In this document: positions 23,740-23,800 of the stretch, one piece after another
How the letters are laid out: each line of letters begins with the position of its first letter
Position numbering within the stretch: position 1 is the stretch's first letter
The notes under the pieces: generated by a model
Databases searched by the model: none
Told to the model about the DNA's origin: nothing
The model's input: only the letters and a program-made list of their open reading frames with translations
From: a virus
Lineage: Duplodnaviria > Caudoviricetes
Length of the DNA stretch: 64,000 nt
Direction: 5' to 3' (one strand)
IMG/VR virus record: IMGVR_UViG_3300033066_001396
Location: 32,001-96,000 of that record
Translations under genes and position numbers: made by a program

Positions 23740-23800
23740 TAACATAGAGATTGACGAAATATGAACATACAACTAATTAGCAATAAACCAATTGTATTCC
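23740..23800 (+). repeat. array-terminal 61-bp repeat, copy 1
   Basis: 54/61 identical to 46488-46548 by manual alignment. Confidence 0.9.

Follow-up and report, generated by a model that had tools for sequence, protein, structure and literature searches.

A putative attI-like terminal site adjoining two integron-like cassette arrays of a Caudoviricetes virus

Known cassette systems and the present locus

Integrons are defined by IntI, attI and attC. In the classical arrangement, attI lies beside intI as a non-hairpin site at the fixed end of hairpin-bounded cassettes (Cury 2016, PMC4889954), and an insert of ~35 residues near patch III is the defining feature of the integrase (PMC4889954). 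Clusters of attC-type sites without an integrase (CALINs) that carry DNA methyltransferase cassettes have been published from virulent phages, including Polaribacter phage P12002L (Qi et al. 2023, PMC9892861); the attC sites in that study were tested with IntI1 only. The nearest Xer-driven analogue of the system considered here is provided by the dif modules (pdif) of Acinetobacter plasmids (PMC6449649; PMC13141974), discrete gene modules that are moved by Xer-type recombinases; each module is flanked by a pair of complete double-stranded sites whose orientation alternates, with no hairpin sites.

The window analyzed here is a stretch of 64,000 nucleotides (positions 32,001 to 96,000) from the 124.6-kb IMG/VR record IMGVR_UViG_3300033066_001396, and it contains two cassette arrays, A and B, that end in nearly the same 61-nt sequence. 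With classical integrons, these arrays share a non-hairpin site at the fixed end of hairpin-bounded cassettes, the adjacency of this site to a recombinase gene where one exists, the AAC/GTT core at the cassette junctions and an inverted pair of short boxes within the site. Folded attC-type sites with ...AAC/GTT... R boxes and L-box stems are present (five 14/15 pairs), the same folded-site architecture recurs in related loci (26 cassettes, all on a single strand), and by its position and conservation the array-end site would correspond to an attI at the integrase-proximal end. The arrays also differ from the classical integron. The partner enzyme is Xer-like, 270-300 aa long and devoid of the ~35-residue IntI insert, and the phage itself carries no recombinase: PF00589 is absent from the record, and the enzymes of the relatives are Xer-like rather than IntI. 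Comparison of two related loci, L007 and L008, places the crossover at the AAC of the 5' box instead of at G|TT of the 3' R box, and the attC-type site does not lie 3' of the ORF. The genes lie on what appears to be the folding strand and start inside the site loops, a mirrored gene orientation, and the R boxes are 14-15 nt long with a fixed G-opposite-T mismatch.

With at least two attC-type sites and no integrase nearby, none being found in the whole 124.6-kb record, arrays A and B can be classed as CALINs. What they share with the published phage CALINs (PMC9892861) is the combination of recombinase-less attC-type clusters with DNA methyltransferase cassettes in lytic phages, and the methyltransferase region of Polaribacter phage P12002L indeed contains cassettes with the same bracket signature; that paper, however, includes no array-end site, Xer-type partner enzyme or small gene. 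Core sites of the Xer/dif type have two inverted arms of ~11 bp around a centre of 5-8 bp and are cleaved where arm and centre meet. The likeness to dif modules would consist in a double-stranded site of this build and in the use of Xer-type recombinases, but here the terminal junction alone is dif-like and its arms match weakly. We found no paper on the Xer-type partner enzyme or the mirrored gene orientation of such cassettes, nor any on their AAC-side junction or array-end site.

Anatomy of the arrays and of their shared ends

Array A (22256..23743, plus strand) consists of two units that follow a backbone ...CTAAC at 22255. Its first cassette (22345-22568) contains a small ORF and the second (22685-23743) an N6/N4 DNA methyltransferase (ORF 22624-23730; PF01555, E 1.7e-29), with a hairpin site between them (22569-22684; folding z -2.1). 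Array B (42460..46491, plus strand) opens with a degraded left unit (42460-43406), in which the bracket boxes match only 9/14, followed by three cassettes that encode a C5 methyltransferase with an inner HNH frame (43524-45298), two small ORFs (45413-46128) and, in the last position, a 95-aa ORF starting at 46203 (cassette 46263-46491); the hairpin site upstream of this last cassette spans 46129-46262 (folding z -3.1). The GC content of array B is 0.32-0.36 compared to ~0.40 in the flanks. The earlier note on this DNA had described the left ends of both arrays as degraded, which holds for array B; the edge of array A is the backbone ...CTAAC.

All five window cassettes are bracketed by inverted repeats that match at 14/15 positions, with GTT at the start and AAC at the end, and are separated by long imperfect hairpins whose loops contain the start codon of the next gene. 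The starts at 22624, 43444 and 46203 are of this kind, and the respective genes consequently include the 3' arm of the stem as well as the GTT box in their reading frames. The bracket repeats, 14-15 nt long, contain a single mismatch at position 11 from the GTT, where a G in the 5' box stands opposite a T in the 3' box. All five cassettes of the window and the related loci displayed this mismatch before it was imposed as a criterion; once it was required, the loci related through the small gene described below yielded 26 cassettes on the plus strand and none on the minus strand. The G-opposite-T positions can form wobble pairs only on the gene-sense strand, which suggests that this is the folding strand.

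Inside 43396-45297, in the C5 methyltransferase cassette, a 215-aa ORF (44508-45155) occupies a second frame without interrupting that of the methyltransferase; on visual inspection it resembles an insert of the HNH type, located between motifs IX and X of the methyltransferase. To the right of array A, a block at 23825-25600 is compositionally odd (GC skew -0.28 to -0.30, GC 0.45) and encodes a 215-aa orphan gene, a PHROG 2776 gene and an HNH-AP2 homing endonuclease (25073-25573, minus strand). The orphan gene has no relatives in viral contigs, and hence no syntenic phage without array A was found. A candidate cassette box at 24479-24493 was rejected as merely the start of the ORF at 24473.

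The two 61-nt copies, 23740-23800 and 46488-46548, are identical at 54 of the 61 positions and constitute the longest direct repeat of the window, the next families being at most 36 nt long and ~70% identical. The stretch is present in two copies only in the whole record, and an exact 35-mer taken from it had zero matches in viral contigs. Both copies open with the TAAC that closes the last bracketed cassette of the respective array, and on both strands the two copies are no more prone to fold than shuffled sequence (z 0.06 to 0.68), in contrast to the internal sites, so that the earlier description of a non-hairpin pair directly behind the last ...TAAC is confirmed. Correctly described, too, was the start of a 65-aa gene within the repeats, intact at 46509 and, at 23761, reduced to 13 shared codons, two more and a stop. 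The copies differ at 5 of the 21 site positions and at 2 of the 40 coding positions, a distribution unlike that of a strongly constrained site; four of the five site differences fall in the spacer. In a separate case of the two-copy pattern, another viral contig, L139 (minus strand), contains two arrays, with ends at 5920 and 9113, that close in a nearly identical 35-nt sequence, a short hairpin without coding content.

A narrow pattern for the internal hairpin arm matched at least 120 viral contigs, in which a strict bracket finder requiring G opposite T at position 11 identified 277 bracket-repeat pairs (~270 non-overlapping cassettes). The array ends in this sample fall into two classes: ends with an initial G are arms of further undetected cassettes, and ends with an initial T or A have a box in common, with diverse genes downstream. 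A weight matrix was derived from 48 non-redundant array ends of unrelated viral contigs, none of them from the window or from the small-gene set; in the box so defined, T8 is invariant and C12/G13 are nearly so. Among all AC-ending positions on both strands of the window, terminal site B (46488..46508, plus strand), TAAC with its 17-nt box, ranks first (score 11.4), and terminal site A (23740..23760, plus strand), of the same composition and likewise without a hairpin, ranks third (9.0). The sequence after the last TAAC thus belongs to a conserved non-hairpin array-end motif. Nine of 10 ends linked to the small gene score within the top 0.15%, and the same box recurs within internal hairpin sites, where it lies in the 5' arm and 2-3 nt farther from the AAC. 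The box is not universal: three of five recombinase-adjacent chromosomal ends score poorly. A promoter or ribosome-binding site was rejected as an explanation of the box because the ATG adjoins it here and lies 20-90 nt off at other ends.

The arm of the last cassette and the box can be aligned as imperfect inverted repeats of 11 bp, separated by a 5-nt spacer (6/11 in site B). Complementarity has its optimum at this spacing (5.3/11 versus 2.4-3.1 at other spacings) and exceeds that of shuffled sequences (5.6 observed, at most 4.5 in shuffles), single sites reaching only a weak 5-6/11, and the cassette junction maps to the border between arm and spacer. Since the box is shared by array ends that lack the small gene, the TAAC with ~17 nt can be taken as the site and the other 40 nt as gene, and the 61-mer is probably a composite, in which a ~21-base array-end site is followed by 13 codons from the start of a small, conserved phage gene. 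The proposal that the 61-mer is attI-like accordingly stands as to position and motif and has to be trimmed as to size, from 61 to ~21 nt. In the small-gene subfamily that has lost the first start codon, the homologous 27 nt are the least conserved stretch, in keeping with a coding role of this part.

The adjoining small gene and the recombinases of related arrays

The intact gene (P0001; 46509..46706, plus strand) encodes a small, conserved phage protein of all-beta structure. The family comprises 10 database homologues (E 4e-29 to 3e-10) and 18 further loci, 19 sequences being included in alignment A3, and its N-terminus, MNIQLISNKPIVF, is conserved at the protein level. The stub of copy A (23761..23808, plus strand) corresponds to the family consensus for 13 codons (tblastn: 13/13 to P0004 and P0005, 12/13 to P0003), followed by two more codons and the stop, and fits other family members better than it fits copy B. 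Weak family homology extends ~30 nt past 23800, and a search for the remainder of the gene elsewhere in the window found none. Given the consensus codons, the stop and the homology beyond the repeat, copy A is a decayed second copy of the small gene, and probably a different allele from copy B; the block at 23825-25600 may be the insertion that truncated it.

An AlphaFold2 model of the 65-aa protein (pLDDT 83) consists of seven strands and a short helix. Searches against Pfam and PHROG returned zero matches, and Foldseek produced nothing at E 0.001 or below; the best VIA match, to an N-terminal stretch of 65 residues in the DNA-binding endonuclease I-HmuI, has a Z score of 4.6, which is within the noise of the search. 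There was no match among 50,697 isolated phage records, and among genomes the only one was a 3-kb MAG contig.

The earlier note would have been contradicted if homologues of the 65-aa gene usually lacked upstream cassettes, and the opposite was observed. All 20 homologues with readable upstream DNA are directly preceded by a cassette end, ...AAC (once TAC) with a related 17-mer, to the left of which lies variable cassette sequence, with a matching 5' box wherever the sequence suffices. This linkage is kept in at least five different downstream gene contexts, and the gene that follows the small gene occurs elsewhere without arrays. The reverse does not hold, given that the small gene lies downstream of only one of ~55 independently sampled array ends, and that one is on the same contig as L007. 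A fixed cassette was also considered for the small gene and rejected, in the absence of a spanning bracket repeat and a hairpin. The comparisons suggest that the gene merely adjoins the array-end site in this lineage, with nothing to mark it as a recombination factor.

No tyrosine recombinase (PF00589) was found in the 124.6-kb record, which is 80% complete. Related arrays do possess one: the gene is present in two large viral records, with homologues in six more loci, and in L034, L028 and L071 it starts 46, 51 and 52 nt, respectively, after the last AAC, co-oriented with the cassettes. Homologues at E 1e-45 or better were detected in 99 of 301 sampled Bacteroidota genomes. In the five chromosomal loci of Bacteroidota for which a cassette lay within reach of the recombinase in the fetched sequence, the recombinase gene has its 3' end toward the terminal end of the array, ~100 nt away, and four of these loci, when re-fetched, contained arrays of 2 to 5 detected cassettes. 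The enzymes, 270-298 aa in length, reach 151-155 bits on TIGR02249, below its integron-integrase cut-off of 265 and in two separate pieces, and align over their full length to archaeal XerA (4a8e), but to IntI4 (2a3v) only up to residue 181; judged by these alignments, they are short Xer-like recombinases without the IntI insert of ~35 residues. The presence of the recombinase gene right beside the array end, where relatives carry one, supports the attI position ascribed to the site. The further claim that the small gene occupies the position of intI fares less well: it does sit in the slot held by the recombinase in complete elements, but its rarity at other array ends speaks against a recombination factor.

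Cassette turnover, proposed mechanism and alternatives

Four related phages (L005-L008) have the same flanks on both sides and differ in their methyltransferase cassettes, one or two in number: a 332-aa methyltransferase, the 332-aa together with a 237-aa protein, a 238-aa protein alone and a 265-aa protein. Every junction lies directly after CTAAC, and the right flank opens with the same 17-mer. The difference between L007 and L008 is an extra cassette exactly at the terminal junction, a unit that starts with a hairpin after CTAAC and closes in its own ...TAAC. The earlier expectation that variable cassettes abut the TAAC is thus borne out to the nucleotide in near-isogenic phages; an empty target site was looked for among the small-gene loci, and none was found.

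In the reading that we favor, with a probability of roughly 0.6, the 61-mer would combine a terminal recombination site of a borrowed Xer-like recombinase with the 5' end of the small gene. Its first ~21 nt would be the right-hand terminal site of an integron-like cassette system shared by Bacteroidota and their phages, the 3' arm of the last cassette and the box jointly forming a double-stranded core site of the dif/attI kind. A short Xer-like tyrosine recombinase, absent from the phage and supplied by the host or by another element, would bind this junction, cleave at or just after the AAC and recombine it with a circular cassette at the folded hairpin site of the latter, with the outcome that cassettes are placed or removed between the TAAC and the box. 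The remaining 40 nt would be the conserved 5' coding end of the small phage gene adjoining the site, copy B representing the working gene and copy A the decayed one beside which the site was retained. The array anatomy, the junction positions, the conservation of the box, the dyad and the adjacency of the recombinase in relatives are the observations on which this reading builds.

The box might instead be the scar of a single event, namely the right half of an attG-like secondary site that was hit by the first cassette, with hairpin-by-hairpin exchange accounting for later turnover, so that the terminal junction would not serve again as a platform. The array edges do resemble a split target, with the backbone ...CTAAC on the left and the box on the right, and integron integrases are known to use attG sites (PMC12901181). 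Moreover, cassettes with close twins in other contigs are not enriched at the terminal site (2/24 proximal versus 5/43 distal), and the view of the earlier note that the arrays grow from the right is likewise unsupported by this count. We nevertheless regard such a scar as unlikely: the recombinase gene is consistently placed at the array end in complete elements, which speaks for a dedicated site and against secondary targets hit at random, the box is conserved over 48 diverse ends, and the cassette that distinguishes L007 from L008 sits precisely at the terminal junction. More improbable still is that the 61 nt have no function as a site and are simply the part in which two diverged copies of the small gene and of its leader still resemble each other. 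This would agree with the coding nature of 40 of the 61 nt, with the pseudogene state of copy A and its weak family homology beyond the repeat, and with the greater closeness of the copy A peptide to other family members than to copy B; yet the identity sets in precisely at the TAAC that bounds the cassette, the first 17 nt fit a motif obtained from arrays without the small gene, and all 20 homologues adjoin a cassette end regardless of at least five downstream contexts.

The remaining alternative, to which we give very little credence, takes up the suggestion of the earlier note that the 65-aa protein is an accessory factor, one that binds the terminal site and aids the borrowed recombinase. 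The 20/20 linkage to array ends, the location in the recombinase slot and the I-HmuI match could be cited in its favor, but the gene is absent from 54 of ~55 other array ends and from the recombinase-bearing loci examined, neither family searches nor Foldseek revealed a DNA-binding or recombination fold, the Z score of 4.6 is no better than noise, and array A keeps its site even though the gene there is dead.

Beyond the favored composite of terminal site and gene start, a more far-reaching but doubtful interpretation would make the 21-nt junction the double-stranded, dif-like attI of an undescribed Xer-type integron family of Bacteroidota. Lytic phages would keep only the site and the arrays and, during infection, borrow the recombinase of the host or of a co-infecting element for the exchange of methyltransferase cassettes that counter restriction; the 65-aa protein, with its tight linkage, could then be the phage's own helper. 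Even at its narrower, the finding would define the attI-equivalent of an Xer-type cassette system, parallel to integrons and using a plain Xer-like enzyme, and the end site can be written as a testable motif. The system is widespread in Bacteroidota phages, its cargo often being DNA methyltransferases that defeat host restriction; a defined site would open it to binding, cleavage and cassette-capture assays, and the motif could serve annotators as a marker of the fixed array end even where no recombinase is present.

Several recurrent features of the loci and one of the window merit mention. The window contains a tRNA gene (18342-18414) with the anticodon CTA, an amber suppressor that ARAGORN calls tRNA-Pyl, and its long ORFs are normal under code 11. 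A ~237-aa methyltransferase cassette with the same 3' box, 665-716 nt long, is found in eight arrays (L058, L082, L083, L106, L125, L135, L137 and L143) and adjoins the terminal site in five of them. The first ORF after the array end belongs to a family of ~60-70 aa, distinct from the 65-aa one, in L045, L051, L058, L083, L095, L106, L123 and L143, and a second recurring family follows the terminal site in L040, L096, L124 and L135.
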